DNA of 64,000 nucleotides from Candidatus Delongbacteria bacterium. Its GTDB lineage: Bacteria > CAIWAD01. The DNA lies in NCBI GenBank assembly GCA_963663545.1, contig OY760505.1:160001-224000 (forward strand). The letters are read 5' to 3'. The stretch's first letter is position 1; each line of letters begins with the position of its first letter. The notes under the pieces were generated by a model, which was given only the letters and a program-made list of their open reading frames with translations, was not told where the DNA came from and did not search any database. The position numbers and the translations under genes are program-made. Below are positions 11,705 to 58,714 of this stretch, piece after piece.

Positions 11705-13051
11705 CTATTGATTGTACGTGTCCACCTGACGGTATTCGCCGAAGCCGCGGGAATCGACAAAGAGGAACTCGCGGCCCGAGTCCTCATACACCCAGCGTTC
11801 CCACGGCGGAGTGTTGACGTCGCCGCCTGAACGCTCGACGTAATCGGGATCGCCGTAGATCATGTAAATGCGACCGCGGTCGCTGCGCCAGCCTGCAAAG
11901 CGTGCCCAACCGAAGCGAGCGTCGGCATAGGCCGCGCGGCGGTAGTACTCGCGCATCAACTCGTTGAGTTCGGTTTCGGGCGTGGGGTCGACCTTCTCCC
12001 AGAAGTCCCGGAACATGTCCTGCTTGAAGCCCTGCGGCGCATCACGCATGTTGCGGTAGTGGCGCCCGTGCATCACGTAATGAAGTTGCTCGACGGCCAG
12101 ATTCAGATCAAAGCCTTCTCCGGGCGTATGCTTCCAGTGCACGCGAAACTGCTCGTGGCGTTCTTCACTGCGCACCAATTTGCCGTGGTCGAATTCTTCA
12201 ACAAGCAATTCAAAAGTGTACTCGCCTGACCCCAACTCCCCACCGGGAATCCGCAGGAGATTGCGCGCCAATCCCGCCGGAAAATGGCGCTCGAGCTGAC
12301 GACTGTGACGCACACGCTTGTGATGGTCGAGGATGCGCGTGCTTAGGCGCAGGCTCAGACTGTCGCGGGAGTAGAGTTCATAGAAGACGGCGAAGTCACG
12401 GCTTTGCTCGTTCAAACTGCCAAAACGCACCGGACGCGCGGTCAATGGATCGGGTTGGGTTGTGTCTGCGTCCTGAATCAGCCACACACCCGCCAGATCC
12501 CAGGGATCGCGACTGGGCTCGCTGACCTTGCACTCACCGTGCAGCGTTTGACGATGACGGGAGTTCAGGTCGACGAATTCCACCCACCACTCGCAGGGAC
12601 CGGGGCTCAGTTCCACTTCGAAATGATGCCAGCGCAGACCATCCTTTGGCATCGTCTCATCAAAGATGGGCGTCTCGTGCTGAAAACGCTGGTAGCGCGA
12701 CGCGAGCAACTGCTTGCCTCGGCGCACTTCCAGGCTGATCTCGTACTGGGCGCGATAACCCAATAGACCAGCTGCTCGATCCCCCGACAGGCTATCGTCG
12801 GCGATCTGAGCCAGACGATCCCCCTGGCACGGCCAGTTCTCGATGTGATCCAAACTGCGTCGCCTGAATTGCAGATCCGCCACATCCAGCATGCACGTGA
12901 ACACCTGTACCGGCGGTTCGTCGGCACTGCGGTAATGCTCGTTGAACTGCACAGCAAAGTCGGGCTCCCAGGCCTCCATATCGCCCGGCCGGTCCTGCGC
13001 CAAAGCAACAGTTCCCATCAGCAACAGGAGCCATAAACAAAGGGGCTTCAT
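11705..13051 (-). CDS. GWxTD domain-containing exported protein
   Basis: Signal peptide; FWEKVDPTPETELNELMREYYRR..GWRSDRGRIYMIYGDPD..W.Y..FLFVD. Confidence 0.88.
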   Translation of the reverse strand: MKPLCLWLLLLMGTVALAQDRPGDMEAWEPDFAVQFNEHYRSADEPPVQVFTCMLDVADLQFRRRSLDHIENWPCQGDRLAQIADDSLSGDRAAGLLGYRAQYEISLEVRRGKQLLASRYQRFQHETPIFDETMPKDGLRWHHFEVELSPGPCEWWVEFVDLNSRHRQTLHGECKVSEPSRDPWDLAGVWLIQDADTTQPDPLTARPVRFGSLNEQSRDFAVFYELYSRDSLSLRLSTRILDHHKRVRHSRQLERHFPAGLARNLLRIPGGELGSGEYTFELLVEEFDHGKLVRSEERHEQFRVHWKHTPGEGFDLNLAVEQLHYVMHGRHYRNMRDAPQGFKQDMFRDFWEKVDPTPETELNELMREYYRRAAYADARFGWARFAGWRSDRGRIYMIYGDPDYVERSGGDVNTPPWERWVYEDSGREFLFVDSRGFGEYRQVDTYNQ

Positions 13052-21109: not shown

Positions 21110-21835
21110 TTATGAAAGCACGTGTTTTTCCAGTTCGCAACCCTCTTGCTGCCGAGGATCTTGCTGTCTAAGGCCGAATTCGAACTGACCCTGGTCCGGA
21201 GTCCAAGCCAAAGCAGCAAAGCCCGCTACTCGCCAACCTCCGGCTGTAAGCAGCATCGCCAGATACTGAAAGGTGGCCCCGGTTGTAACAACGTCGTCCA
21301 CCAGCATCACTCTCTGCCCCTTGCCGGGCTTGCGTAGTCGATACTGGCCGACCAGATTGCGCAAGCGCGCCGCCCGGTCGAGCGACTTTTGCTGACAGCC
21401 ATCGCCACGTCGCTGCAGAACCTGAGCCACAGGCAACCGCCACTCGCGTCCCAGACAACGTGCCAGGAGTAGAGCCGGGTTTCCGCCGCGTTCCCGCTTG
21501 CGCACAGGATGCGCGGGAACCGGAACCAGCACCTCGGCGGGCCAGGCGGGACGCGACCAGTGACGACAAAGCCGCCGGCACAACGCAGCCTGCCCGCCAT
21601 ACTTCACCTGGCTCAAGACCTGACGCCCCACATCCGCATAGGCAAAACGGGCACATCCAGGCAGGGACTCCGTGCCGCAGCAGCTGCTGCCCGTGGCCAG
21701 CAGCTCCTCAAGGCAGGAGTCGCACAAAAAGGCCGCCCACGGCTCTAGCTCGCCCGCGCATTGCAGACACCGGGCAGGAAGCAACAGATCCTGCATTCCA
21801 GCCAGCAGAGAGCTGCAAGCTTGAAGTACCGACAT
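21110..21835 (-). CDS. comF: ComF family phosphoribosyltransferase-like competence protein
   Basis: N-terminal CxxC..CxxC zinc motif, LVPVPAH..R.RERG, RLRNL, LVDDVVTTGAT. Confidence 0.88.
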   Translation of the reverse strand: MSVLQACSSLLAGMQDLLLPARCLQCAGELEPWAAFLCDSCLEELLATGSSCCGTESLPGCARFAYADVGRQVLSQVKYGGQAALCRRLCRHWSRPAWPAEVLVPVPAHPVRKRERGGNPALLLARCLGREWRLPVAQVLQRRGDGCQQKSLDRAARLRNLVGQYRLRKPGKGQRVMLVDDVVTTGATFQYLAMLLTAGGWRVAGFAALAWTPDQGQFEFGLRQQDPRQQEGCELEKHVLS

Positions 21836-23262: not shown

Positions 23263-24660
23263 TTATCGAACTTTTTCCATCAGCGCAACGCATTCCACAT
23301 GCGCCGTGTGCGGGAACATGTCCACGGGCCGCAGCCGCTTCAACTCATAACCGCCTTCGATCAATAGAGCAGCATCACGGGCCTGTGTCACGGGATTGCA
23401 GGAAACGTAGACAAGACGTGGCGCAGCGATCTCCAGCAGCTGCTGTACGACACGCGGATGCAAACCGGCGCGTGGCGGGTCTACGATAACCACCGTCGGA
23501 TTCTGGTCCAGACCACCGGCTAAAAGGTCTTTCACGTCGCCTGAACTGAAGCGCATTTGCGAAAGGCCGTTGAGTTCCGCATTGCGACGAGCGGCCACGA
23601 CGGCCTCCTCCACAAGCTCGAAGCCGGTTAGGTCGACGCCCTCCTTGGCCAGACAAATGCCAATGGACCCCGTGCCGCAGTACAGGTCCAGCAAACGATC
23701 ACCCCCGTGAAGGTTGGCGAACTCTGCCGTCAGCGCGTAAAGTCGCTCCGCTTGCTCGGTGTTGGTCTGAAAGAAGCTGCCCGGTGATACAACAAAACGT
23801 CGGCCACAGACAACTTCCTCGAGCTCGCCGCTGCCGTGATGCACGCATGCCAGATCGCCGACCGCCGTCTGCCCGCTACCCGAGTTAACTGAACTGACGA
23901 TGCTGCTGAACTCACCTGGAAAGGCGTCAAGGAGCTCCTTGGCAAGTTGCGCTGCCCGTGGATCACCGGGATGACTGACGACGATATTCAACAGCCGCTG
24001 ACCTGTGCCGCGCGCTTCGCGTATCACAAGAAAGCGCCAGTAGCCGGTGTGCTGAAAACTGTGCCAGACCGACTCTGCTCCCCCACCTCGCTCCAGCACG
24101 AACTGACGGATGTACGCAAGCATGGGTGCTACCAGCGTGGATTGCAGCACGCACTCTTCGAGATTGAAGACCTTACTGAAGACACCACGTGGATGCTGGC
24201 CCAGACCGAACTCGGCTTTGTCGGCGTCCTTGCCGTCGGGATGCCAGGCCATGTCGCTGAAGCCGAATTCCATTTTGTTGCGATAGTAGGTCTGCGCTTC
24301 ACAGGGCAGAATAGCTTCGACCGCAGGTGTTCCGACACCGCCGATGCGCTTCCAGGCTTCCTCAACAAAGGACTGCTTGGCCTTGAGCTGTTCGGCATAG
24401 GCCAGCATCTGCAAGGGGCATCCGCCGCAGTAGGCGGCGTGTTTGCAGAGCGGGTCGATACGATCGACCGAGGGGGTGATCAAGCTCAGCAGGCTGGCTT
24501 CCATGTGGCGCTTGCGCTTGCGTGTGATACGCGCCTCGACGACATCGCCGGGCAAGCCGCCATTCACAAAGACCACAGCACCGCCAGGATGACGCGCAAC
24601 GCCGCGACCGCCGATGGCGAGGGCTTCGATGTTCAGCTGCAGGATCTCGGTTTTTTTCAT
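23263..24660 (-). CDS. rlmD: 23S rRNA m5U1939 methyltransferase
   Basis: TRAM domain, CKH..CGGC, YRNKMEF, SFFQTN, DLYCGTG, DPPRAGL, YVSCNP, DMFPHTAHVE. Confidence 0.93.
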   Translation of the reverse strand: MKKTEILQLNIEALAIGGRGVARHPGGAVVFVNGGLPGDVVEARITRKRKRHMEASLLSLITPSVDRIDPLCKHAAYCGGCPLQMLAYAEQLKAKQSFVEEAWKRIGGVGTPAVEAILPCEAQTYYRNKMEFGFSDMAWHPDGKDADKAEFGLGQHPRGVFSKVFNLEECVLQSTLVAPMLAYIRQFVLERGGGAESVWHSFQHTGYWRFLVIREARGTGQRLLNIVVSHPGDPRAAQLAKELLDAFPGEFSSIVSSVNSGSGQTAVGDLACVHHGSGELEEVVCGRRFVVSPGSFFQTNTEQAERLYALTAEFANLHGGDRLLDLYCGTGSIGICLAKEGVDLTGFELVEEAVVAARRNAELNGLSQMRFSSGDVKDLLAGGLDQNPTVVIVDPPRAGLHPRVVQQLLEIAAPRLVYVSCNPVTQARDAALLIEGGYELKRLRPVDMFPHTAHVECVALMEKVR

Positions 24661-24795
24661 GGGGAAAAGGTAGCAAGCTTTCCGCAAACCCTTTGTGCAC
24701 TTGGGCGCTACCCGATGCGTACAGCGAAAAATCGTGTATCACATCGGTAGCAGCTTGTGGCGCAATGACATTTTGATCCCTATATTGGGCGCTTT

Positions 24796-24868
24796 GCCAC
24801 CCTAGCTCAGCTGGTAGAGCAACTGATTTGTAATCAGTAGGTCGTCGGTTCGATCCCGGTGGGTGGCT
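24796..24868 (+). tRNA. tRNA-Thr(TGT)
   Basis: GCCACCC..GGGTGGC-T acceptor stem, TAGCTCAGCTGGTAGAGC D arm, ACTGA-TTTGTAA-TCAGT anticodon arm, GTTCGAT T loop. Confidence 0.95.
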
Positions 24869-24878
24869 TTAAGAAATC

Positions 24879-24909
24879 AAGGGTTTACGAGAGATCGTGA
24901 ACCCTTTTT
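24879..24909 (+). terminator. Rho-independent terminator after tRNA-Thr
   Basis: AAGGGTTTACGA-GAGA-TCGTGAACCCTT hairpin followed by a T-tract. Confidence 0.7.
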
Positions 24910-25250
24910 CGTTTTCGGTGCTACGCTGGTGCTATTTTACAGTGGGGGAAACAGGTTGGGGAATCGCACTGGTGAGTTCCGGCATCCGTGCAACCTTCCA
25001 GCCATTGATCCGCTGTGTGATACATCTTCTCTACTGCGTTGTGTTAGGTGTGCCGGGTAATGATGGTGCGCTGGAGTCCGGGTTGCTGTCAGTCATCACT
25101 CCTTGGACTCGGCACGGTCAAGGATGTGTCACCGGCTCCCGGATGCTGGCTGCGATCAATGTATCACGAGGGTGCTGTCGGAGTGCGTAGGACAAGGCAA
25201 GGGGGTAGGGGTACAATTGTGTTCTTCAAGCTGATCCCTTTCATCGATGT

Positions 25251-25390
25251 GCCTAACGCCTCGGTTGTGAAGCCCTAAAAACGCCCTGACCGGGAGTGAC
25301 AAGCCAGACAAACCACCAATACCTTAATAGCGGGCAATTATGCTAAAATTGCGCCGCGTTTTTAGGGTCGTTACCAACCGTTTGTTAGCG
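25251..25390 (-). repeat. attC site of cassette 4 (140 bp)
   Basis: + strand GCCTAAC..CGGTTG..CCCTAAAAACGC / GCGTTTTTAGGG..CAACCG..GTTAGCG; GTTAGCGCTTCT is complementary to the cassette's 5' boundary AGAAGCGCTAAC (26673-26684). Confidence 0.88.
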
Positions 25391-25442
25391 CTTCTCCTGA
25401 TATGATCGTCTATCATCATGACGAATCTTCACGGCATTATCC

Positions 25443-26474
25443 CTAATTAAGATAGATTGAAATCTCCTCCCGTAACCTGTCAGCACCATCAGAGGTATTG
25501 CCCAAAATGGTGACAACCCTGTCGTCTTCTACGGTATAGGTTGATGAAAACGAGACGCCTGGATCTCCCCCCACGAGATAGTAGGCTGAAACCTGTCCTT
25601 CGGGGTTGTGTTGAATCCAAAACCCAAGTCCATAATGAAGATTCTTACACCAATCTCCCGTGACCGTGGCTTGAATACTTAAGACTTCAGCTAACAACTC
25701 GTCACATAAAAAGTTCCCAGAGAGCAGACCATGCCACATTTTTGCCATATCATCGGCCGTGGTAAAGAGGCCGCCATCAGCGGTGCAGACGATCGGAATC
25801 TCAAAGATATTGGAGTACCATGCACCGTTGTCGTCTTGTATGTACCCGTAGGCACAGTTTTTGGGGAGTTGGTTTGATTTATAGCACCCTGTTCTGGTGA
25901 GACCAAGCGGTTCACACACGTCTTGTTGAATGTAGTCAGCATACTCCATTCCTGACACAACTTCTATCAGCAGACCTAAGATCACAAACCCTGAATTGCA
26001 GTAGGTAAATTTCTCACCGGGCTGAAAATAGGCGTCTCCGTCAACAAGTAATGGCAACATATCGGTGATGCTGAGTATCTTATGCATGGGTAGCTTCTCA
26101 AAGACTGGTCCAAAATCGTCAATCAGGCGTTCATTGAAATAGTCATAGATGCCTGATGTATTACTTAATAAGTGTCGAACCGTGATGCGTGTATCCATAT
26201 TGGGAAACGCATACGGAAGTATGTCAAAGACGCGATCCTCCAGTGACAGTTTTCCCTGATCCACCAGCCGTAAAATACCTAAGGCGGTAAATCCTTTTGT
26301 CCCAGAGGCAATACCAAAGGCCGTATCAAGGGTATTGGGTAATTCATCGTCTCGTTTTGCGTATCCGGCGGCAACATTCAAGGATATTGTCCCGTGTTCG
26401 ATAATTTGGATCACCCCTGAGAAATACGTGGCGTTTTTGACGACCTCTGTGATCTTGTGTACGTCCATAATCAT
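25443..26474 (-). CDS. Cassette 4: serine hydrolase of the beta-lactamase/PBP family
   Basis: F.IASGTK (SxxK), ITVRHLLSNTSG, PGEKFTYCN (YxN), ADGGLFTTADDMAK, YGLG; no signal peptide; start chosen behind AAGGGA. Confidence 0.88.
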   Translation of the reverse strand: MIMDVHKITEVVKNATYFSGVIQIIEHGTISLNVAAGYAKRDDELPNTLDTAFGIASGTKGFTALGILRLVDQGKLSLEDRVFDILPYAFPNMDTRITVRHLLSNTSGIYDYFNERLIDDFGPVFEKLPMHKILSITDMLPLLVDGDAYFQPGEKFTYCNSGFVILGLLIEVVSGMEYADYIQQDVCEPLGLTRTGCYKSNQLPKNCAYGYIQDDNGAWYSNIFEIPIVCTADGGLFTTADDMAKMWHGLLSGNFLCDELLAEVLSIQATVTGDWCKNLHYGLGFWIQHNPEGQVSAYYLVGGDPGVSFSSTYTVEDDRVVTILGNTSDGADRLREEISIYLN

Positions 26475-26677
26475 TAGTTCCCTTCTGATTGTATCATCCA
26501 TTATCATCAATCACTGTACAGCTGATGGTACAACGTCACATGGCTCTATCGCGCTGTTCAGATATCGGCATATGTCTCATACTGAGCGATGGTATCGTGG
26601 TCGGGTTTGTCAAGACAAAAAAGAGGGATGATCGTAAAACTCCTCGGCACGATCTCATTGCTCTACACTCGCAGAAG

Positions 26678-26853
26678 CGCTAACGGTCAAGTTTCTATGG
26701 TCCGGGAGCGTGGCGCGGCGCTTGCGCCGAGCCACTTAGCTGTTTGTGAAGCAAACGGCTCTGAAGCGCCCAATGCGCAGCATTGTGGCGCTGGCAGCGG
26801 TGCCTTGCAAGCGACGTGACACGCCGCGGATCCATTGCAAACTTTTGTTATAC
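26678..26853 (-). repeat. attC site of cassette 3 (176 bp)
   Basis: + strand CGCTAAC..AAGTTT..ATGGTCCG..GCGTGGCGCGGCGCTTGC / GCAAGCGACGTGACACGC..CGGATCCAT..AAACTT..GTTATAC; directly abuts the ORF stop codon. Confidence 0.85.
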
Positions 26854-26854
26854 G

Positions 26855-27979
26855 TTAACCTCGTATTGCGCCAATCACCTGATTTGTCGTGTATGAACGG
26901 CCATCAGGAACCAGACTATCTTGATCCCTGGCTACTTCCAACGATGCACCTGCTTCCATTCTAGAGCTGAGGCAGTTCTTCAAATTTTCATTGAGACTAT
27001 CCCACCACTCAATAGATATTGCGATATTTTCGAACGTCTCAAAGCAAAACTGAATTAGTAAAGATCCTTTAACGTTGTCATCCGTATCTATAAATGATTG
27101 AATGAACTTATCGGCCGAAGTGTTCTCTCCTACCCATTGAAATACAGCCAATCCTCCGCTCTCCGTTCCACACATTGTAAAAGTTAAGGCATCTAATCTT
27201 GTTCCATGATTTGCATATTCCTCAATTCCCTGAAGCACTTTTCCGCCAAAATCATTTTCTAATTGAGTAGATCCACTGCACATTAGCTCCGGAGTTTTAC
27301 TTAGCTCAACAGCAAAGAAGTGAGAATCCTCAAACGAGTTGCTTAGAAGCACATCATCATATCTTTTTTTGCTGTCATCAATATCCTCTAATCCCGCAAT
27401 TACACCGCCGGAATAGAGTTTAAATTCCTGTTGATGAGCAACCTGCTGAATCACATCTAGACCACGATCTAGTGTCTTTCCAAATTTAAGCATATCCGTT
27501 TGTCTACGTTTAGCAAACAGCTCACGGCAGACCGCTCTATAGCCAAGTAGAAAGCAAGTCTCCTTCGTCACCTCCAGTGGCCTGTCCTCAATAGGCAGAA
27601 AGACAAGCTTGTCATGATGTGAGCAGAATCCCGTGAATGTGGTAGCTTTTCCTATTCCGGTTTTCAAAAGACCCAATGCACCATCACGCTTGACGAACCC
27701 GGTAGTCGATACGTCAATCGTATACACATGAGAATCAACAGCAATCTGCTTCAGACCATTTCCATTTCTCTGGATTGAGTGGGCACGAACAATATTCCCC
27801 CCGCAGACACCCTTCGCAGCTCTTGGATGAAGGCAGTACTTCTTATCTGCCCGCTTCTGCTCTGCAATCACTTCAGCGAGATCAACTCTCTTCTCCTCTG
27901 CCCGACGCAGATGGCAGTGTTTGAACTTCTTGCCTGATCCACACCAGCAGGGACAATTCCTCAATGCTCCAATGCTCAT
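26855..27979 (-). CDS. Cassette 3: SEC-C metal-binding-motif protein of unknown function
   Basis: N-terminal RNCPCWCGSGKKFKHCH; further C..C, AHSIQ and TFTGFCSHHD motifs; 374 aa. Confidence 0.85.
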   Translation of the reverse strand: MSIGALRNCPCWCGSGKKFKHCHLRRAEEKRVDLAEVIAEQKRADKKYCLHPRAAKGVCGGNIVRAHSIQRNGNGLKQIAVDSHVYTIDVSTTGFVKRDGALGLLKTGIGKATTFTGFCSHHDKLVFLPIEDRPLEVTKETCFLLGYRAVCRELFAKRRQTDMLKFGKTLDRGLDVIQQVAHQQEFKLYSGGVIAGLEDIDDSKKRYDDVLLSNSFEDSHFFAVELSKTPELMCSGSTQLENDFGGKVLQGIEEYANHGTRLDALTFTMCGTESGGLAVFQWVGENTSADKFIQSFIDTDDNVKGSLLIQFCFETFENIAISIEWWDSLNENLKNCLSSRMEAGASLEVARDQDSLVPDGRSYTTNQVIGAIRG

Positions 27980-27994
27980 TGTCTATCCTTGTAC

Positions 27995-28123
27995 GTATAA
28001 CATCTGTGTTTCAACAGCGGCGTCCTGGCGCGCCTTTTGCCCAAACGAGTGTTACATCTAGCTTAATCCTGTATCACGCAAAAGGCGTGACAGGCGACCG
28101 GCTGTTGGAAACACTCGTTAGGT
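27995..28123 (-). repeat. attC site of cassette 2 (129 bp)
   Basis: + strand GTATAAC..GTGTTTCAACAGC..CGCCTTTTGC / GCAAAAGGCG..GCTGTTGGAAACAC..GTTAGGT; GTTAGGTGCATAAAT mirrors ATTTATGCACCTAAC (29204-29218). Confidence 0.9.
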
Positions 28124-28167
28124 GCATAAATGGATTAATGCGAATGCAGCTAATGCTTGTCTAAGTG

Positions 28168-29181
28168 TTAATTCGCCGAAAGGGCAATACGGAAGCCAAC
28201 CCAAGAGTAGCCGGAAGCTGGATTTCCGAAATTACGATTTGCCACACGACTGTAGTGCGCAGCGTGCCCAATTGCACCTCCGTGCCCAGTTTTAAGAGAT
28301 CCTGCTTCTGGGCCATGAGGGTTATCCACAGGACTTACGTCGAAATAATCGGCATCATACCAATCCCAGCACCATTCCCAGAGATTGCCATTCATGTTGT
28401 AAATGCCCAACTGATTAGGGAGCTTTGTTCCAATCTCGCCCGGTCCACCATTGCTGCCATACCATGCATATTCACCTAAGCTGCTTTCTTCGTGACAGCC
28501 ACTATATCTGAGATTATCCTCGTTATGTATTCCGCCCCTCGCAGCATATTCCCATTCGGCTTCTGTGGGCAATCTATACCCGTTAGTGTTCCAGCTTACA
28601 TCTGGTGTAAAACTTGCAGGCCACAGAAGAGGATTAGATTCACCATCAACGGTGTAACACGGCGTACGGTTCTCTGCAATGCTTTTCAGATTACAGAATT
28701 TGATCGTATTGTACCAATTGACGTTTGCTTGTGGGTAGTTGGTCCCAGATCCACCATTCATTATGAGATTGTACTCATCATTTGAAACTTCAGTTTCACA
28801 AATGTAGTAGCTACTCAAATTGACAGTATGAACTGGCTGCTCATCATCGCCACCTTCTTGCTGTTCCCAGAAATGATCACCCATCTCAAAGGATCCACCT
28901 TCAACGAAAACCATATTTTCGGGGATATCAACAATACTGTCAATTGCTGTAACATGGAAGAACTGATACCCACTTACAGTTGCTAGTAGCTCAGCAGGGC
29001 TATCTAACGATGTTCTACCATAGATATTGTACCCATCTGCACCTGCAACCGGTTGCCACTGCAAAAGGACACCAATTGAGTCTCCGTTAACTGTTGCCTG
29101 AATCTGGACTTGGGGCGGATCAACCGCAAATGAGTTTCCAACAATGAAGAAAATGAATAACAGCGAATAAATTGTCCTCAT
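28168..29181 (-). CDS. Cassette 2: exported FGE-sulfatase (SUMF1/EgtB/PvdO-like) domain protein
   Basis: Signal peptide MRTIYSLLFIFFIVGNSFA; MVFVEGGSFEMG, ETEVS, YRLPTEAEWEYAARGG, PNQLGIYNMNGNLWEWCWDWY, GFRIA; GGAGGG RBS. Confidence 0.9.
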   Translation of the reverse strand: MRTIYSLLFIFFIVGNSFAVDPPQVQIQATVNGDSIGVLLQWQPVAGADGYNIYGRTSLDSPAELLATVSGYQFFHVTAIDSIVDIPENMVFVEGGSFEMGDHFWEQQEGGDDEQPVHTVNLSSYYICETEVSNDEYNLIMNGGSGTNYPQANVNWYNTIKFCNLKSIAENRTPCYTVDGESNPLLWPASFTPDVSWNTNGYRLPTEAEWEYAARGGIHNEDNLRYSGCHEESSLGEYAWYGSNGGPGEIGTKLPNQLGIYNMNGNLWEWCWDWYDADYFDVSPVDNPHGPEAGSLKTGHGGAIGHAAHYSRVANRNFGNPASGYSWVGFRIALSAN

Positions 29182-29211
29182 AACACCCTCCAAATAATTG
29201 TGAATTTATGC

Positions 29212-29285
29212 ACCTAACACGTGGCTAAGCCGCCATGCCCGCCGCTTTTGGGCGGGTATGGTCGGTCTTTAGCCTTTTGTTAACC
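29212..29285 (-). repeat. attC site of cassette 1 (74 bp)
   Basis: + strand ACCTAAC..GGCTAAG.CG.CATGCCCGCC / GGCGGGTATGGTCGG..TTAGCC..GTTAACC; its GGTTAAC box (minus strand) complements the GTTAACC at attI. Confidence 0.9.
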
Positions 29286-29286
29286 T

Positions 29287-29445
29287 TTATGGTCTCCAAG
29301 TTTCAACTGTGCCATCCTTACGAATGGTAACAACTGTTCTTTTTCCACATTTTGGACATCCTATCCTTTGCTCTCCTGGGACAAAAGTAATCTCACCGAT
29401 TTTTTCACCACAATGCGTACATCGAACAATTATTGTGTCTGCCAT
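29287..29445 (-). CDS. Cassette 1, gene 2: 52-aa zinc-ribbon protein (Mu Com-like spacing)
   Basis: Manual translation [62 protein letters not shown]; the stop sits immediately before attC. Confidence 0.85.
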
Positions 29446-29455
29446 TTTCTCTCCT

Positions 29456-29848
29456 TTACCATGTTGGTTTCTTTAAATCTTTTGATGATAAAGCACTAAA
29501 CTTCCTGTTTTCAAATGAAGGGAAATTTAGTGAGTTTGCGGAAAACCTTGGAATCAGAGAGCTTGCTATATAGATCCCCGATTTAGTTTTCTCAACTTGA
29601 AAAGAATGATTATTAAACTGAATTATTTTATCAAATGCAGCTTCAGTTAAACCACTAGAGATAACATCAACTCCAAACACGGAAAGATCTGAACAATCAT
29701 TAACGGTTTCTATTGTATTTGATATATCTGAAACAGCGTCAATGACTGAATAAATTTCATAAGCAGCTGCAATAGATTTAATAATGCCGCCAAAAACTGC
29801 TTTTTTGAATATTGCTGAGGCAATTTTGAGAAGTAGAGATTCAATCAT
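29456..29848 (-). CDS. Cassette 1, gene 1: 130-aa hypothetical protein with hydrophobic/amphipathic N-terminus
   Basis: ORF begins 7 nt after the attI core; very AT-rich; no recognisable family. Confidence 0.75.
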
Positions 29849-29855
29849 TTTTTTA

Positions 29856-29885
29856 GGTTAACATCTTATTCTACGGACCGTGTTA
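29856..29885 (-). other. Putative attI recombination site (core GTTAACC at 29862-29856)
   Basis: GTT core immediately upstream of the first cassette ORF, between the array and the divergent intI, with no attC-like hairpin. Confidence 0.75.
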
Positions 29886-30069
29886 TCCCGCACTTCCGCA
29901 CTTCTCTGGGTCCTGTTAAGTCCGCTCTTCGCATTTCTGTAGTCCTGTGTATCCAGCCCAGCGCGACCCCAAGGTCGCAAATCCTGCATAGATACAGCAA
30001 GGAAAAACACAGTGTTGTCAAGAAAGGTCTACACTCGATTTCACCCCTCCCAGCAGAACGCATAACTCC

Positions 30070-30098
30070 TTGAACTGCCCTTGTTAATCTCTTATCCT
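30070..30098 (+). promoter_or_regulatory. Candidate sigma70 promoter for intI
   Basis: TTGAAC-N17-TATCCT about 35 bp upstream of the GTG start, which has a GGAG RBS. Confidence 0.4.
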
Positions 30099-30133
30099 GA
30101 CAGCAGCTACGTACTTAACAGGGTGGAGTTAAC

Positions 30134-31094
30134 GTGACAGGGCAAAGATTGCGAGACCTGTTCCATGCATCATGCCGTAAGCGACATCTTAGCGAAAGCA
30201 CCGAGCGTGTCTATTGGCACTGGATCCTCAGTTTCTTGAGATTTCATGAATTGCAGCATCCACTTAGTCTGGGATCAAATGAGGTTGAACACTTCCTTTC
30301 ACACCTTGCCGTCCAGCAAAGTGTGGCCCCTTCGACTCAGACCCAGGCCCTGTGCTCCATTGTTTTCCTATACCGAAGTGTTCTACACCACGACATTGGC
30401 GATTTTTCGAGCTTCACCAGGGCCAAACCATCGAAGCACCTCCCGGTAGTGCTTTCGCGACAGGAAGTTCGGTCGCTGCTGGACAACCTAGAAGGTGTCT
30501 TCCGTCTGCAGGCCTCGCTACTCTATGGTGCCGGATTGCGCCTGACTGAATGCATGACTTTGCGAGTCAAAGACATCGACTTCGACAGGAATACCCTGTT
30601 CGTGCGGCAAGGCAAGGGCGCCAAGGACCGCAGTGCAGTGCTTCCCGATGCCATCAAGACTTCGCTGCATCAGCACGTGCTAGACCTCAGCGAGAGACAC
30701 AAACGCGATGTTGCACATGGCGTACATGTGCCTCTTCCTGGCGCTCTGGCACGCAAGTATCCCAATGCGAATCGGTCCTTAGCCTGGTATTGGTTGTTCC
30801 CATCTGCTGAAGTTCATCGATCAGAACAGGGTGGCGAACGCTGGCACCAGTCGCCAGCAACTCTGCAAAGGGCTGTTTCTACTGCCATTAAAAAAAGCGG
30901 GAATCTTGAAGCATGCGGGATGCCACACTCTGCGCCATAGCTTCGCTACACACTTGCTGGAATCCGGCACTGACTTGCGCACAATTCAGACGCTGTTGGG
31001 CCACGCCGACATTCGCACTACTATGATCTACACCCACGTTCTCGAAATGCACTCGTCTGGAGTTCGCAGTCCGCTGGAATTCGCACTTCGCTGA
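30134..31094 (+). pseudogene. intI: Integron integrase, frameshifted at an A7 run (30890-30896)
   Basis: FLSHLAVQQSVAPSTQTQAL, LPVVLS, LLYGAGLRLTEC..LRVKDIDF, GKGAKDR, and the IntI-specific insertion V.LPGALARKYPNA..W.WLFPS. The catalytic [23 protein letters not shown] lies in the +1 frame. Confidence 0.92.
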
Positions 31095-31291
31095 TCGCGT
31101 ATCGGACAATCAGACGTGCTCGGCTTGGACAAATCCTTTGGCTCGGGAAAGGATGACTGCAACAGTGTCTGACCTTCAGCCCTTCCTTGCTAGCCTTTTG
31201 AGCGCCATCCCCCAGCTGCATCCCAGGCTGGCATTCCAACAAGACAAGCTCAACAACCAGCGTATCAATTCATAACAGCTGCATCCACAAA

Positions 31292-31647
31292 CACATGGCA
31301 ACAGCCAGGCCCGGCCAGGTGTGATGCCCGCTTCGCGTCCATCACCTCGACGAAGCCCCGCATCTCATTCGACTGTATCCGCAACTCCGCTTAACTGCGG
31401 GTCTTCGTCCACAGGCATTCAGGGCTTTCTGTCGAAGATGAGAGGTAGAATCGGCTCCGCCGAATCTACACGCATTCCGGCCACTGTATCCCACAGCTTG
31501 TCTATCACACGAAACTAACCAAGTCCATTGATCCACGGCATCAGGAAATGTCGCACGTGAAAGCCGAGTTGACTCCGGGCTTTGTCCCGGCGTCAACTCG
31601 GGTTGAACAAGTTGGCGTATCACATGGCAACAGCCAGGCCCGGCCAG
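31292..31647 (+). repeat. Perfect 27-bp direct repeat pair (31292-31318, 31621-31647) flanking a hairpin-rich 302-bp spacer
   Basis: CACATGGCAACAGCCAGGCCCGGCCAG occurs twice. Confidence 0.9.
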
Positions 31648-31890
31648 CGGAAGCTGACGAGTCGTCAGCTGACTCTGGACGGGCGAGCGTTTTCTTTGCG
31701 CCGGTTTCTTTGACGCGACAAAGAAAGCGGCATCTTTGGGCTTAGCGCAAGCGTACGCCCCGCGCCAGCGGCAAAGAGCACAAACAGCAACATGCTACTA
31801 CAGCTGAATAGCGGCACTTCGACCCCAACTGAAGAAAAGAGCCCCGCGCGGGCATGGCGCTCGGCGAAGCCAAATCCTACATTGATTGCC

Positions 31891-32550
31891 ATGAAAGGCT
31901 TCATCGGCATCGCAGGCAACATCGGCGTTGGCAAAACCACACTCACCGACTGGCTGGCCACCCACCTGAACTGGGACCCCTACTACGAGAGCGTGGCGGA
32001 CAATCCCTTCCTGGCCGACTTCTACGGCAACATGGACCGCTGGGCCTTTCACCTGCAGATCTACTTCCTGCAAAGCCGCTACAGCAGCCATCTTGAGATG
32101 TGCGAAGGCGAGCGCGGCGTCATTCAGGACCGCACCATCTGGGAAGACGTGGAAATCTTCGCGCGCAACCTCACCGAAACCGGACGCATGAGCCAGCGCG
32201 AATGGCACACCTACCGCCACCTCTTCTACAACATGTGCCAGTTCCTGCGCCAACCGGATCTGATCCTCTACCTGCGCGCCTCCGTCGACACACTGAAGGA
32301 GCGCATCCGCAAGCGTGGCCGCGAGTACGAACAGAGTATCGATCCGCTGTATCTGGAGCAGCTGAATTCGCTGTACGAGCGCTGGATCGCCGGTCTGCGC
32401 GATCAACCCGTGCTGGTCATCGACGCCGACAAGCTGGATATTCTGCAGGACGACCGCAAAATGAAGCGTCTGCTGGAGGCCGTCGAGCGCGAACTCAGCC
32501 GCCACCAGCTCACCCTAAGCCTCGGGCACTCGCCCGCTCCGGCAGAATAG
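31891..32550 (+). CDS. Deoxynucleoside kinase (dCK/dGK family)
   Basis: IAGNIGVGKTT P-loop, YESVADNPFL.DFY, IQDRTIWED, PDLILYL, RIRKRGREYE. Confidence 0.93.
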   Translation: MKGFIGIAGNIGVGKTTLTDWLATHLNWDPYYESVADNPFLADFYGNMDRWAFHLQIYFLQSRYSSHLEMCEGERGVIQDRTIWEDVEIFARNLTETGRMSQREWHTYRHLFYNMCQFLRQPDLILYLRASVDTLKERIRKRGREYEQSIDPLYLEQLNSLYERWIAGLRDQPVLVIDADKLDILQDDRKMKRLLEAVERELSRHQLTLSLGHSPAPAE

Positions 32551-34536: not shown

Positions 34537-36021
34537 TCACTGCGTTGGCAGATCGTCTGACGAAATGGAAAGCTGGAACAGGTAAATGGTGCTGCCCAGG
34601 CTGTCTTGATCGGCGACGAAAACCGTCTCGTCGTAGGTTGAAGTGCGATCGCTACGGTTACCAAACACCGCTACAGATTGGGGGCTGATCAGCTGATCGT
34701 ACTCCCAGCTCTTGATGAAGCGGGTTTGCGCCGCAAGAATCAGCGTGCTATCCACAAGGGCGCCGTCTATGGTGTAGACCGTATCCAGCACCGCCACTGT
34801 TGTATCATAGCTGATTCCATCGATCACCAGAGTAGTATCGGTCAACACGCCCCGGTTGGTATAGAGCTCCGGTTCAAGAATACGCGAAGCGCCGCAGGGA
34901 TAGAGGTAGTCGCCGCTGGTGTTGAACACTTTGATACAGCGCGCGCCCTCATCCGCCACCAGAATCTTGTCATTGGTGTAGGTTACATCCAGGGGCTTGC
35001 TGAAAAAGCCCAGAGCGGAGATTTCACCTTCATAGAGATTGGCATCGTAGGACCAGTTCTCGTTGCCGTAATACTCCCACTCCAAGCGCTGAACAGGGAT
35101 GAGACTCCCCGTTGAATTGACAAGGTAGATATCGCCATAGGGATCAACCTCAAGAGCCCGAGGCTCCCAGACGCTGCCTGCGCCGGTTCCCGGATAGCCG
35201 ATCTGGTCCTCTTCGCCCTCTTCGTACAAATAGACCAGCGGCACATCGGGATCGCTGGTAAAGAGCACAGCATAAGGCACCAAGAAAAGATGCGAGATCT
35301 CGTCGCCGGCGGGTTTGCTAACGCCGTAGAACAACTCTCGATGACCCGAACGGCCACCCGACACAGCGTCAATAGAATAGGTGCTTCCACCTTCGTAAAG
35401 CACCTGCAGTCCCGCCAGCGGCACCCACTCCGTAGGAGCCATTTCGGTACCGCCAACCAGGGTCAGATCTCCCAGTCGCTGATACTGCACCAGGTCCACC
35501 AGGAACTCACCCGTCAGGCCGTAGCCTTCAACGACACGGGCAAACTCCTCAATGCTCAGATCGAACTCGCCCGTTTCGTCGCTGCTGAAGCGCAAGTCAC
35601 GATAGGCGGCGACAACGGGTAGACGATTGGCCTGCAGATTAAAACTGTAGATGCGCGCACTGCCGTCGGCCAGAAACAGAAGCTGCTCCGGCCCAACCGC
35701 CAGACTGCGCACACCCGGCAAGCGCAGCGTATCCTGAAAGGTCTCCATCGTGATATCATTCAAGGCCTGGTCCCAGACACGGACGATGCCCAGAGCCGAA
35801 TCCGCCGCGTAGATATGGCCATCATCATCGATGAACACATCGCGAACGGCGCTGCCCAGCGGCAACTCGATGTTTGTGGTCAGCTTCAGCCAAGTGGTGT
35901 CCGCGCCCAACGTAGTATCGCCGGAATGCTCCACTTGCGGTAAGGACATGGTGTCGGGATCGCAAGCCGCCAATAGCCAAACAAGCAGGACCGGAAGTAA
36001 AATGCTGGCAAGCTTTTTCAT
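34537..36021 (-). CDS. Lipoprotein with NHL/beta-propeller-like repeats
   Basis: Lipobox LLAAC; GHIYAADS, LFLADG, ILVADEGARCIKVFNTSG, VFVAD. Confidence 0.8.
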   Translation of the reverse strand: MKKLASILLPVLLVWLLAACDPDTMSLPQVEHSGDTTLGADTTWLKLTTNIELPLGSAVRDVFIDDDGHIYAADSALGIVRVWDQALNDITMETFQDTLRLPGVRSLAVGPEQLLFLADGSARIYSFNLQANRLPVVAAYRDLRFSSDETGEFDLSIEEFARVVEGYGLTGEFLVDLVQYQRLGDLTLVGGTEMAPTEWVPLAGLQVLYEGGSTYSIDAVSGGRSGHRELFYGVSKPAGDEISHLFLVPYAVLFTSDPDVPLVYLYEEGEEDQIGYPGTGAGSVWEPRALEVDPYGDIYLVNSTGSLIPVQRLEWEYYGNENWSYDANLYEGEISALGFFSKPLDVTYTNDKILVADEGARCIKVFNTSGDYLYPCGASRILEPELYTNRGVLTDTTLVIDGISYDTTVAVLDTVYTIDGALVDSTLILAAQTRFIKSWEYDQLISPQSVAVFGNRSDRTSTYDETVFVADQDSLGSTIYLFQLSISSDDLPTQ

Positions 36022-37034
36022 CGTCCTGCCCCCTTGTTGATCCAGTCAAACTCGGCCGACATGCGGCGGCTGTTGTCCAGCAGACCAAAGTCGCTGTAGC
36101 TGAAATCCAGTCGCAGATTCATTTTTCCCAAACCGTACTTCATGCCCGCACCCAGCGACCAGCTCTCTTCATCGCTGTTGAGCTTCCAACCTGCGCGCAG
36201 AAAGGCCCATTTCATGAAGCCGTACTCTGCACCGAAGGAGTAGCTTTCGCGTGCGTCCACTGGATGATTCACCTGGGTTGCCAGCAGCAGCTGATGAATG
36301 TTGGCTGTATCACGCCAGACGGTCATTGCGCCCCCCAGACGGAACACCGTGGGCGGGCTGAATTCGTCGTACTCTTTGTCGTTGTCGTTGTTCTCGTAAG
36401 GGGGCGTATAGGACTCATTGGGGCTGATTACGCCGCCCATATTGACCAGAGCCACGGCCACGGTCAGATCGCGCCAGCCGGTCTGATAGAAGGTCCCCAG
36501 ATCAACCAGGTAGCTGCTCATCTTGACTTCGGCAATGTCTTCGCGCACGTACTTCACGCTAAGGCCAGCGGAAAACTGATTTGTCATGCGCGCCGACGCG
36601 GTTAGCTGTAGCAGCTGGTCCGTGAAGTAGAAGGTGCGACCATCCCCGTCCGGGTGGGTCTCGGTGGTAACGGCCATCGCATCGGTAGCCAATTGCGCGT
36701 ACGCCAGACCAAAAGCCAAGCGCTGGTTCAGGCGATGGGTCACGCCAATGTAATCGTAATCAATGTCTGCGGGCCAATCGAGATGAGTGAAGTAGACACT
36801 GCTGCCTTCCATCATACCCAATCCTGCGGGATTCCAATACAGAGCCGTGGCATCATCGGCCACACCCACAAAAGCCTGCGCCATTCCCTCGGCTCTCGCG
36901 CCCACGCCAATTTTCAGGAACTGCAGCGAGGTTGTACCCGCGCGCTCCTCACCAAAATTGCTGATCAGATCCTGACCGTTGACAACGGTGGCGGTCAGGA
37001 GCAGAAGCAGCGCTGCGTTCAGTTTCCTATTCAT
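36018..37034 (-). CDS. PorV/PorQ family outer-membrane barrel
   Basis: AGTTSLQFLKIGVGARAEGMAQAFVGVADDATALYWNPAGL; LRLDFSYSDFGLL. Confidence 0.88.
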   Translation of the reverse strand: MNRKLNAALLLLLTATVVNGQDLISNFGEERAGTTSLQFLKIGVGARAEGMAQAFVGVADDATALYWNPAGLGMMEGSSVYFTHLDWPADIDYDYIGVTHRLNQRLAFGLAYAQLATDAMAVTTETHPDGDGRTFYFTDQLLQLTASARMTNQFSAGLSVKYVREDIAEVKMSSYLVDLGTFYQTGWRDLTVAVALVNMGGVISPNESYTPPYENNDNDKEYDEFSPPTVFRLGGAMTVWRDTANIHQLLLATQVNHPVDARESYSFGAEYGFMKWAFLRAGWKLNSDEESWSLGAGMKYGLGKMNLRLDFSYSDFGLLDNSRRMSAEFDWINKGAGR

Positions 37035-51542: not shown

Positions 51543-52883
51543 ATGCTTACCACCCTGCTCTTTTCCCTTGGTCTGCCCTTGAGTGCATTTGCCGGCTATG
51601 CCCTCTCCAAAAAATTCTCTGCCCGTTCCACGTGCGACAACGAAAGTGATACACAGGTCCAGGAGACCCTGAACAACGTACAATCGCCCATGATGGCCAT
51701 TGATCGCGACTTCAACATAGTCCGTATCAACACCGCAGGTGCCTCACTCGGTGGACGACGCCCGGAAGAGCTGGTGGGTACGAAGTGTTATGAACTCTTT
51801 CGCACCGGCCACTGCAGAACAGAGAAATGCGCCCTGGCTCGAGCGATGAAAGAGGGAAAGGTGATCACCGCGCGCACCTCGGCGAAGCCAGGTGATAACG
51901 AGTTCCCCATTCTCTACAGCGGCTCACCTACATATGACAACGAGGGCCGTATCACGGGCGCCATCGAATACGTGCAGGACATCCGCGCACTGGTAGATGC
52001 CCAGAACCGCACCCTTTCCTGTGCATCACGCCTCAGTGGATCCGTTGACGAGCTGAGTGAAGTGTCGTCCAATATGAAGCAACGCACTCTGGAAATGAGC
52101 GCGGGCTCCGAGCAGGTCGCGGGTGCAGCGGTTCAGGTCCGTGGTAACTTCACCACAGTGACCGCCGCCGTGGAAGAGTCGCGCGCCATCTTCCACAACA
52201 TTGCCTACTCGACACAGGAGCTTTCCTCCTCGATCAACGAGATTTCCCAAAGCACTCAGGAGGCAGCCACCCTTACTCGCGAAGGCGTAGATGTGGCCAA
52301 CCGGCTGGCAAAGCGCATTGAAGAGCTGGACAAGGCCTCGCGCGAAATCGGCGGCATTATCCAGGCCATCGTGGCCATCAGCGAGCAGACCAAACTGCTT
52401 GCGCTGAATGCGACCATTGAAGCGGCCCGTGCAGGCAACTACGGCAAGGGTTTTGCCGTTGTCGCCAACGAAGTCAAGGAACTTAGTCAGCAAACCAACG
52501 ATGCCATTGTGGATATTCAGGCCAAGGTGGGTATGATCACCGACTCCAGCCGCCTGACATCCAACGACATCAGCGTGATGAACGAATACATGCAGAGCAT
52601 CTTCGGCACGGTTGAGAGCATCGCCGGCGCACTGGAAGAGCAGAGCGCGACGACATCAGAAATCAGTTTCAGCGTCAGCGAAGCCGTAACTGGCATGGAT
52701 GAAGTAACACGCAACATGGCCGAAGCGAATCAGGCTGTGGGCGACATCGCCGATCAAACCGTGGAAATCAGTCAGCATTTGCGTGGCCTCAACGAAGCCA
52801 GCCTGACCGTTTCCGGCAATTCGAGCCTGCTTGTGGACTTGAGTATGGAGCTGGCCGTGGCCGCCGAGGACCTGACCAACTAG
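51543..52883 (+). CDS. Methyl-accepting chemotaxis protein with PAS domain
   Basis: PAS domain (GTKCYELF...C); [35 protein letters not shown]. Confidence 0.93.
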
Positions 52884-58210: not shown

Positions 58211-58714
58211 CTACTGGCGAATGAAGTCCTGAAAGAGGACGCGATCGACAGCGCCTGCATTCAAGAAGCCGTTAATGACTACGGTGACAGAGTCGCGTAT
58301 CGCCTCGCGCTGGCTGATGTCCGAGAGTTGAGTCTCGGGCAGGGAGCTCAAATAGGAGATTAGTTTGTCACGAATGAAGGGCATGCGAGTGCCAAGCTCG
58401 CCCTGCAGGTCAGTGTTCTCAGGATCGCACTCCACCGCCAGGGTGATCTTGAAAATGCGGCGCCCGGAAGCATCGGAAGGATTGATAACCAGATCGTCCA
58501 CGGGAATGATGGTGCCGAATTCGTACTCCTTCTCCGCATCGCCCTCGCCGTCCTTGCCCTTGTCCTTGGTCTTGCCCGGTTGCCCATCTTCCACGAGCTC
58601 GGTGCTGTCCTGATTGCGATAGTGATTGAAGAACCAGTCCATCACGAAGTAGGAGAGGACGATCTGCGCGATCAGGGCCACCAGAATTGCCAGAATGATG
58701 AAGTAGAGTTTCAT
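58211..58714 (-). CDS. fliL: Flagellar basal body-associated FliL family protein
   Basis: N-terminal TM; LVINP....RR, PFIRD.LI..LSS, IN.FL..G.V..VLF.DF..Q. Confidence 0.85.
   Translation of the reverse strand: MKLYFIILAILVALIAQIVLSYFVMDWFFNHYRNQDSTELVEDGQPGKTKDKGKDGEGDAEKEYEFGTIIPVDDLVINPSDASGRRIFKITLAVECDPENTDLQGELGTRMPFIRDKLISYLSSLPETQLSDISQREAIRDSVTVVINGFLNAGAVDRVLFQDFIRQ

Follow-up and report, generated by a model that had tools for sequence, protein, structure and literature searches.

A small chromosomal integron with four heterogeneous cassettes and a frameshifted integrase gene in Candidatus Delongbacteria

The stretch of DNA analysed here (the window, 64,000 nucleotides) is taken from contig OY760505.1 of a Candidatus Delongbacteria bacterium (assembly GCA_963663545.1, positions 160,001 to 224,000), and all positions below are those of the window. 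At 25251–31094 lies an element of 5,844 bp which the original prediction, made from the letters alone, had described as a complete integron in a chromosome of the Fibrobacteres–Chlorobi–Bacteroidetes (FCB) type. By direct reading, an integrase gene, intI (30134–31094, plus strand), is divergent from four minus-strand cassettes, which are bounded by an attI core and four attC sites. The predicted attC coordinates and sizes (74, 129, 176 and 140 bp) are exact when read on the minus strand, and the overall arrangement holds as well, with an integrase that belongs to the IntI family and has its specific insert, an attI core, and four co-oriented cassettes each delimited by an attC site. Every structural mark of integron membership that could be examined was found, and an intact integrase gene was not. 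Since intI is frameshifted as assembled, the element is complete only as an inventory of intI, attI and four attC sites.

The integrase gene extends over two reading frames. The N-terminal one (30134–30895, plus strand) encodes a SAM-like domain, the start of the catalytic domain and the IntI-specific insert, and the C-terminal one (30897–31094, plus strand) carries the LLGH and MIYTHV motifs. The frame shifts at a run of seven A residues (30890–30896, plus strand), where the two abut. The open reading frame (ORF) starting at 30134 stops only at 30940 and the frame with the conserved C-terminus opens already at 30831, which means that the two overlap; on full-length IntI homologues they meet at neighbouring alignment columns, with conserved motifs on either side. 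The conserved motifs of tyrosine recombinases, including MIYTHV, are all encoded and align with those of the homologues, split over the two frames, and we take these conserved residues to be the catalytic ones. In the protein collection, the gene on the source contig (3,721,866 bp) is represented by a predicted product of 268 amino acids (aa), and the frameshift is therefore present in the assembly and is not a reading error.

Whether the protein is an IntI or a XerC/D-type recombinase was decided by family cut-offs. The N-terminal frame (268 aa) alone scores 267.7 bits against the NCBIfam integron-integrase model TIGR02249, which has a cut-off of 265, over profile positions 6–254 of 315, and the C-terminal frame (30831–31091) scores 114.6 bits over positions 251–313 of the same profile and covers positions 118–170 of 172 in PF00589. 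For the N- and C-terminal frames, respectively, the XerC model gives 63.3 and 77.2 bits and the XerD model 62.6 and 81.5 bits, with cut-offs of about 330. The best match among solved structures is IntI4 (PDB 2a3v, chain A), which is matched over residues 14–259 with an E-value of 3.6e-50; the alignment is unbroken over query residues 15–256, across the IntI-specific segment (ALARKYPNA...WYWLFPS), while the alignments of Xer-like chains end at about residue 181. This segment is also kept throughout an alignment with seven named integron integrases. The outcome that would speak against the prediction, an integrase that clusters with XerC/D and lacks the IntI insert, thus does not apply, because the TIGR02249 cut-off is reached and the IntI-specific segment is aligned.

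Within its family, the protein is divergent. The closest other protein among 7,524 matches (8,000 candidates were scored) is 51–52% identical, and the identity is 43.0% to IntI1 and 43.7% to the best plasmid-borne IntI. Similarity to IntI3 at the DNA level extends over only 125 bp at ca 73% (70–75% to the plasmid records of other integron integrases) and is confined to the C-terminal part of intI. Beyond this conserved 3' end, the rest of the element has no match in 72,556 plasmid records.

The attI core, GTTAACC, is found at 29856–29862 (minus strand), 271 bp from the intI start, with the presumed crossover point between the G at 29862 and the following TT. From here on, each block opens with the TT that directly follows a G and closes with a long, imperfect palindrome set between a 7-mer ending in AAC (R'') and a 7-mer beginning with GTT (R'), these cores being present in all four attC sites. 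On the minus strand, attC1 (29285–29212, 74 bp) has GGTTAAC as R'' and GTTAGGT as R', attC2 (28123–27995, 129 bp) has ACCTAAC and GTTATAC, attC3 (26853–26678, 176 bp) has GTATAAC and GTTAGCG, and attC4, the last of the array (25390–25251, 140 bp), has CGCTAAC and GTTAGGC. As had been predicted, several cores deviate from GTTRRRY, namely those of attI, attC2 and attC3. The internal sequences of the sites are indeed unrelated: the similarity is within the range of shuffled sequences for all six pairs, such that the four sites share no sequence beyond their cores. In addition, a second word ending in AAC, GGTTAAC, stands directly before R'' of attC3 (26854–26860, minus strand); it has the sequence of R'' of attC1, which is also that of the attI core's complement.

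The junctions show a further regularity, which was also part of the original prediction. The G together with the first bases of cassettes 1 to 4 is perfectly complementary to the R'' side of the cassette's own attC over 8 (by reading), 15, 9 and 12 nt, and the neighbouring cassette's bases lack such complementarity. In the case of cassette 1, the attI junction and the start of the cassette (GTTAACCT) provide the 8 nt. The complementarities of cassette 2 (15 nt) and cassette 4 (12 nt) were also returned by an independent repeat search, as I2 and I14. Such complementarity to the own R'' side is expected if circularised cassettes were inserted at G|TT.

We now consider the folding of the attC sites. 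Taken as single-stranded DNA, the bottom strands (the plus strand of the window) of attC1 to attC4 fold with −21.5, −34.5, −54.4 and −22.1 kcal/mol, corresponding to z-scores of −4.7, −6.5, −5.85 and −2.0 relative to shuffles. The top strands give −19.6, −31.0, −44.8 and −22.1 kcal/mol, so that in none of the four cases is the top-strand fold more stable than that of the bottom strand. An initial, crude hairpin scan (AAC...GTT combined with a minimum-free-energy fold) proved to be unspecific, overlooking attC2 and selecting G+C-rich hairpins in other places, and it was replaced by a score for the asymmetry of the two arms.

In this arm score, the R'' arm is aligned with the reverse complement of the R' arm and scored for one-sided extra bases. 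Each of the four sites has its extra unpaired bases on the R'' arm, the first at 8–10 nt from R'' and the next some 5–6 pairs further. For the cassette orientation as compared to the other orientation, the scores are 14.25 vs 9.0 for attC1, 16.25 vs 12.75 for attC2, 13.25 vs 10.25 for attC3 and 15.25 vs 11.75 for attC4. Nine known attC sites of plasmid resistance cassettes (aadA1, aadA2, cmlA1, aac(6')-Ib, dfrA14, dfrA12, dfrA1, blaBIM-1 and qnrVC1) have the same one-sided pattern, and all nine prefer the cassette orientation, as do the four sites here. When the whole window is scanned with this score, 10 hits reach at least 9 and five reach at least 13, the latter being the four attC sites and one hit nested in attC2. 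For comparison, 20 dinucleotide shuffles gave on average 3.9 hits of at least 9 and none of at least 13, and 1.16 Mb of unrelated loci gave six hits of at least 13. The GGTTAAC word before attC3 appears in the scan as a second, lower-scoring hit (26860–26678).

The sites were also searched for with covariance models. A MAFFT alignment of the nine known attC sites had misaligned 3' arms and was not used for this purpose. The first model (R1, built with Infernal) was instead based on five short class 1 attC sites, and on seven plasmid loci it found twelve true sites at E ≤ 0.5. Five of these were not in the training set, namely those of dfrA12, blaBIM-1, dfrA14 and dfrA1 together with the end of the aadA11 site; the qnrVC1 site was missed. 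The dfrA14 and dfrA1 sites score 14–15 bits with R1 and attC1 of the window scores 15.0 bits. The second model (R2) was trained only on these twelve known sites from plasmid resistance cassettes. Applied to both strands of the whole window with filters off, it returns exactly three hits at E ≤ 10, which are attC1 (28.2 bits, E = 1.9e-4), attC4 (20.4 bits, E = 0.016) and attC2 (18.8 bits, E = 0.041), each aligned end to end on the minus strand; the E-values are rough, owing to a shortened calibration. As controls, 1.16 Mb scanned under default filters yielded nothing with R2, and in 85.5 kb scanned with filters off there were three hits, none above 11.6 bits. The second outcome that would count against the prediction, that the repeats fail an attC covariance model, was accordingly not seen for three of the four sites, attC3 being the weak one. 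A candidate for a fifth site toward tRNA-Thr, an R''-like ACCTAAC at 25049–25043, was rejected as it has no hairpin (z from +0.5 to +0.9), and no fifth attC was found between attC4 and tRNA-Thr. A search of the integron against Rfam gave only two sub-threshold chance matches to snoRNAs.

The region between intI and attI (29863–30133) is assigned by position only. Twenty-six nt upstream of the attI core, it can be read to contain a tandem of two copies of AAGTGCGG at 29903–29888 (minus strand), followed by GATAAC. This AAGTGCGG tandem could represent integrase-binding repeats of attI. It can also be mentioned that a weak sigma-70-like match (TAGACA, 16 nt, TAAGAT; 9/12) is located at 30213–30186 on the minus strand, inside the 5' end of intI and directed toward the cassettes. 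Class 1 integrons keep their cassette promoter, Pc, within the 5' end of intI.

The four cassettes hold five ORFs, all on the minus strand, with stop codons 1–52 nt before R''. Cassette 1 (29218–29861, minus strand, 644 bp, G+C 0.37) has two of them. The one at 29848–29456 (minus strand) encodes 130 aa without an assigned family and that at 29445–29287 (minus strand) encodes 52 aa with a zinc-ribbon-like CxxC...CxxC pattern; neither reached the cut-off of any family in profile searches. The look-alikes of the 130-aa protein in the Atlas score ca 0.83 with low recognition and are uninformative. Cassette 2 (28001–29217, minus strand, 1217 bp) has an ORF that ends at 28168 and encodes 341 aa from a TTG at 29193, with an ATG following at 29181. 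Its product has a hydrophobic N-terminus and an FGE-sulfatase domain (PF03781, 143.9 bits), and the models for GldK and EgtB score far below their cut-offs.

The ORF of cassette 3 (26684–28000, minus strand, 1317 bp) is at 27979–26855 and encodes 374 aa with an N-terminal SEC-C motif (PF02810, 31.9 bits), the remainder having no assigned family. Atlas clusters of SEC-C proteins (370–409 aa) score 0.96–0.97, with Pseudomonadota as the commonest taxon. In a library of defence systems, the SEC-C motif matches E2 models at only ca 19 bits, a weak score that was not taken as evidence. Cassette 4 (25257–26683, minus strand, 1427 bp) has an ORF that ends at 25443 and encodes 343 aa from an ATG at 26474. 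The product is a serine hydrolase of the beta-lactamase family (PF00144, 162.6 bits) for which all named beta-lactamase models score far below cut-off. Two relatives come closest, at 83% and 78% identity, and those with a name are annotated as "serine hydrolase" from Eubacteriales and Vallitaleaceae, at 53–55% identity. We would not call this a resistance gene, and the family-profile search recognised no resistance gene among the cassettes. The leader of cassette 4 is ca 209 nt long (26474–26683), as compared to 13–36 nt in cassettes 1–3, and no minus-strand promoter-like site is found in it. Mixed attC types had been taken to imply that the cassettes were recruited from different donors. Here the heterogeneity of the attC sites is clear, and an origin from different donors is plausible, if only weakly indicated by the relatives of the proteins of cassettes 3 and 4.

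The assignment of the host to an FCB-type chromosome is borne out by a protein of the PorV/PorQ family, a GWxTD-domain protein and a SusC-like receptor in the window, and by the nearest relatives of the RlmD protein encoded beside the element. Among one genome per species in GTDB, these are from metagenome-assembled genomes of Ignavibacteriota, Chlorobi, Bacteroidota and Kapaibacterium, at only 32–43% identity. In the case of GlgB, only one relative reaches 87% identity, and the second best stands at 68%. In view of the families in the window and the distant relatives of RlmD and GlgB, the label is reasonable and the lineage is thinly sampled. The PorV/PorQ-family, GWxTD-domain, methyl-accepting chemotaxis and FliL proteins (encoded at 36018–37034, 11705–13051, 51543–52883 and 58211–58714) together point to a flagellated organism of the FCB group. 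Seven large ORFs of the window (304–829 aa) have no family in either NCBIfam or Pfam.

A recurrent word of the host DNA, GTATCAC, is very strongly over-represented. It occurs 71 times in the window (46 on the plus and 25 on the minus strand, for example at 24736, 25017, 25161 and 31617), preceded by T in 43 cases and by C in 23. The 8-mer TGTATCAC has 43 copies as compared to 0.9 expected from dinucleotide shuffles, and the density of the heptamer is 1.2 per kb, as compared to 0.07 per kb in 80 unrelated loci. The copies are tied neither to one reading frame nor to one orientation relative to genes, and 15 are intergenic, which indicates a motif at the DNA level; their flanks have no extended conservation. 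GTATCAC could be an uptake-signal-like sequence or some other genome-wide word of the lineage. A literature search found no paper pairing it with "uptake sequence". A ComF-family gene is located at 21110–21835.

The element differs from its surroundings in two respects. The G+C content is 0.37–0.46 in the cassettes and ca 0.50–0.55 in intI, compared to ca 0.57–0.62 in the flanks, and GTATCAC occurs only once in the 5,844 bp where 7.0 copies would be expected (Poisson P = 0.007). Because the G+C content is lower than that of the flanks and the host heptamer is nearly absent, the data suggest import, and we infer that the whole integron was imported as a unit and was immobile thereafter. Among the scanned window ORFs of at least 120 aa (42/43) there is no transposase family, in line with what had been predicted, and these ORFs and a repeat scan gave no second integrase and no tRNA-derived repeat either. 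The proposal that the element is sedentary fares less well. According to a passage of Cury et al. (2016, PMC4889954), a sedentary integron is one present in 100% of the genomes of a species or one having more than 19 attC sites; there are four here, and the composition points instead to import.

On the left-hand side, the element is followed by a host gene for tRNA-Thr (TGT anticodon; 24796–24868, plus strand), identified with ARAGORN and Rfam, which lies 382 bp beyond attC4. On the other side, the gap of ca 700 bp between intI and a deoxynucleoside kinase gene has an exact direct repeat of 27 nt (31292–31318 and 31621–31647, 329 bp apart), with hairpins nearby at 31561–31604 and 31638–31684. 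Only these two copies are present in the window, with 0 expected, and the second begins inside a copy of the host heptamer. It is conceivable that the imported DNA ends on the right at this repeat.

From established integron biology, one can outline how the array would have been assembled. A circular cassette would present the folded bottom strand of its attC, which here is the plus strand of the window, and IntI would recognise the hairpin through the bases that are bulged out on one arm. Recombination of attC with attI would then take place within the core, after the G and before the TT, and a promoterless cassette gene would thereby end up downstream of a promoter located in intI or close to it. 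The scar of the circular intermediate would be seen in the inverted complementarity of a cassette's start to its own R'' side.

Taken together, we interpret the element as a genuine small chromosomal integron that belongs to no numbered class, with four cassettes inserted stepwise at attI, imported into an FCB-group host and probably frozen in its present form. We assign this interpretation a probability of roughly 0.88. A number of results weigh against it. The fold of attC4 is barely better than that of its shuffles (z = −2.0, with 3 of 200 being equal). In R2, attC3 aligns end to end with only 4.5 bits and an insertion of 142 nt and is not significant over the window; the site nonetheless forms a hairpin with asymmetric bulges and is complementary to its cassette's start at the junction. 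Both covariance models are our own and are distinct from that of IntegronFinder. For the IntegronFinder attC model, a passage of Cury et al. (2016, PMC4889954) gives a sensitivity of 61–88%, which makes a single weak site among four unremarkable. Furthermore, no cassette promoter and no integrase-binding repeats of attI were recognised, the sigma-70-type scan, which does not cover FCB-type promoters, giving 12 sites where 9.1 were expected and hence no enrichment. The depletion of the heptamer is that of one window. As to activity, the junction complementarities would testify only to past cassette recombination, and with an intI frame that is not intact as assembled, present activity is doubtful.

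The most radical alternative is that there is no integron, and that a Xer-like or phage-type tyrosine recombinase happens to lie beside unrelated genes which are split by terminator-like hairpins. The crude hairpin scan did meet hairpins of similar energy elsewhere in this G+C-rich window, and the covariance model fails to recognise attC3. However, the integron-integrase cut-off is reached with the Xer models far below theirs, three of the four sites are the only hits in 64 kb of an independently trained model, and terminators do not have junction complementarity, here up to 15 nt, placed exactly at the G/TT boundaries; a terminator scan of 24600–31900 found only two sites, both after the tRNA. 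This alternative is already contradicted by the results, and we regard it as extremely unlikely. A different question is whether the integron works. As intI is interrupted in the assembly, the array is probably frozen at present, the exceptions being a sequencing error in the homopolymer, a reversion, or another integrase acting in trans. The first of these would mean that the real gene is a single frame of ca 320 codons, that the frameshift is an error of homopolymer length in sequencing or assembly, and that the integron is fully active. The break lies exactly within a run of seven A residues, and neither frame shows other decay; they run collinear with full-length IntI, and no conserved motif is lost. 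Against this, the truncated 268-aa product is the protein-collection entry for the source contig, and inactivated intI genes near arrays are documented, with a passage of Cury et al. (2016, PMC4889954) listing 15 of 279 clusters of attC sites lacking integron-integrases (CALIN elements) with an intI pseudogene nearby. We therefore consider full activity to be possible, although it is clearly the less likely case. One can also speculate that the run of A residues is a slippage-prone on/off switch, in which a single A is gained or lost in the DNA or in the transcript. This is a very doubtful proposal; if true, the imported integron would shuffle its cassettes only in a subpopulation and would be a phase-variable integron.

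The last alternative concerns the route of entry, namely that the integron is mobile and arrived as part of a larger integrative island inserted beside tRNA-Thr, and is not a resident platform. It is consistent with the tRNA gene close to the last attC, with the foreign composition and near-lack of host heptamers over the whole stretch including intI, and with the fact that no IntI of more than 52% identity was found among the 8,000 scored candidates from 5.8 billion proteins, so that it was not seen in the one sampled relative with 87% identity in GlgB. It is at odds with the scanned ORFs and repeats of the window, which have no transposase, no second integrase, no conjugation gene and no tRNA-derived direct repeat, and specifically with the repeat search at the far end of the element, where no direct repeat derived from tRNA-Thr was found. 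Apart from the conserved end of intI, there is also no match in the plasmid records. Moreover, the host heptamer is met again no more than 90 bp from attC4 and ca 520 bp past intI, and with its return so close to both ends, nothing beyond the integron looks foreign. An island of this kind thus appears improbable, and a small imported integron, now probably frozen, is the interpretation that we retain.

It is an ordinary integron, and the find does not change the understanding of integrons. What it adds is a well-documented example from a sparsely sampled FCB-group lineage in which few are known, with an IntI only ca 50% identical to any other sequence found and attC sites that keep the positions of the bulged bases and vary in spacer and helix lengths. 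This makes it a useful test case for attC models that are trained mostly on Proteobacteria, and it bears on how far integrons travel between phyla. A specialist might note the divergent IntI, the bulge positions that are kept despite short spacers and long first helices, and the frameshift at a single point in a homopolymer.

Among known systems, those close in layout include the chromosomal integrons of the Bacteroidetes/Chlorobi group, in which an intI with a small attC array is likewise found in an FCB-group chromosome. The original prediction implied that integrons are rare outside Proteobacteria, which is already answered in print for the FCB group, as the part of the IntegronFinder 2.0 paper concerned with it (PMC9024848) reports complete integrons in Chlorobi, Ignavibacteriae and Salinibacter ruber M1. 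The likeness is one of layout; the IntI here is frameshifted and at most 52% identical to any protein found. An array with a non-intact integrase gene is also known from the CALIN elements with a nearby intI pseudogene described in part of Cury et al. (2016, PMC4889954); in the present case, intI is broken at a single point and otherwise conserved, and attI is still in place.

Among solved structures, the best relative is VchIntIA (2a3v, E = 3.6e-50) of the Vibrio cholerae superintegron, which is chromosomal like the element described here. The superintegron is a long array of near-identical repeats, whereas here there are four cassettes with unrelated attC sites. Such an array fits the finding, given in a passage of Cury et al. 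(2016, PMC4889954), that heterogeneous attC arrays are almost always small. The element was not placed in any of the mobile classes 1–5, considering the 43.0% identity to IntI1, the chromosomal location, and the window ORFs, in which no transposition genes were found.

Finally, with class 1 integrons the element shares the divergent arrangement of intI and cassettes, R'' cores ending in AAC and R' cores beginning with GTT. It differs from them in the 43% protein identity, in having no Tn402 or 3' conserved-segment context, in the greater length of its attC sites (up to 176 bp) and in cassettes without a recognised resistance gene. The attC hairpins also depart in detail, with an unpaired spacer of 2–4 nt and a first helix of 6–7 bp where the known sites have 5+3 or 3+5. 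Yet the extra bases on the R'' arm are found at the same positions in both, ca 8–10 nt from R'' and again 5–6 pairs further, and a model trained on class 1-type plasmid sites finds three of the four sites in the window.

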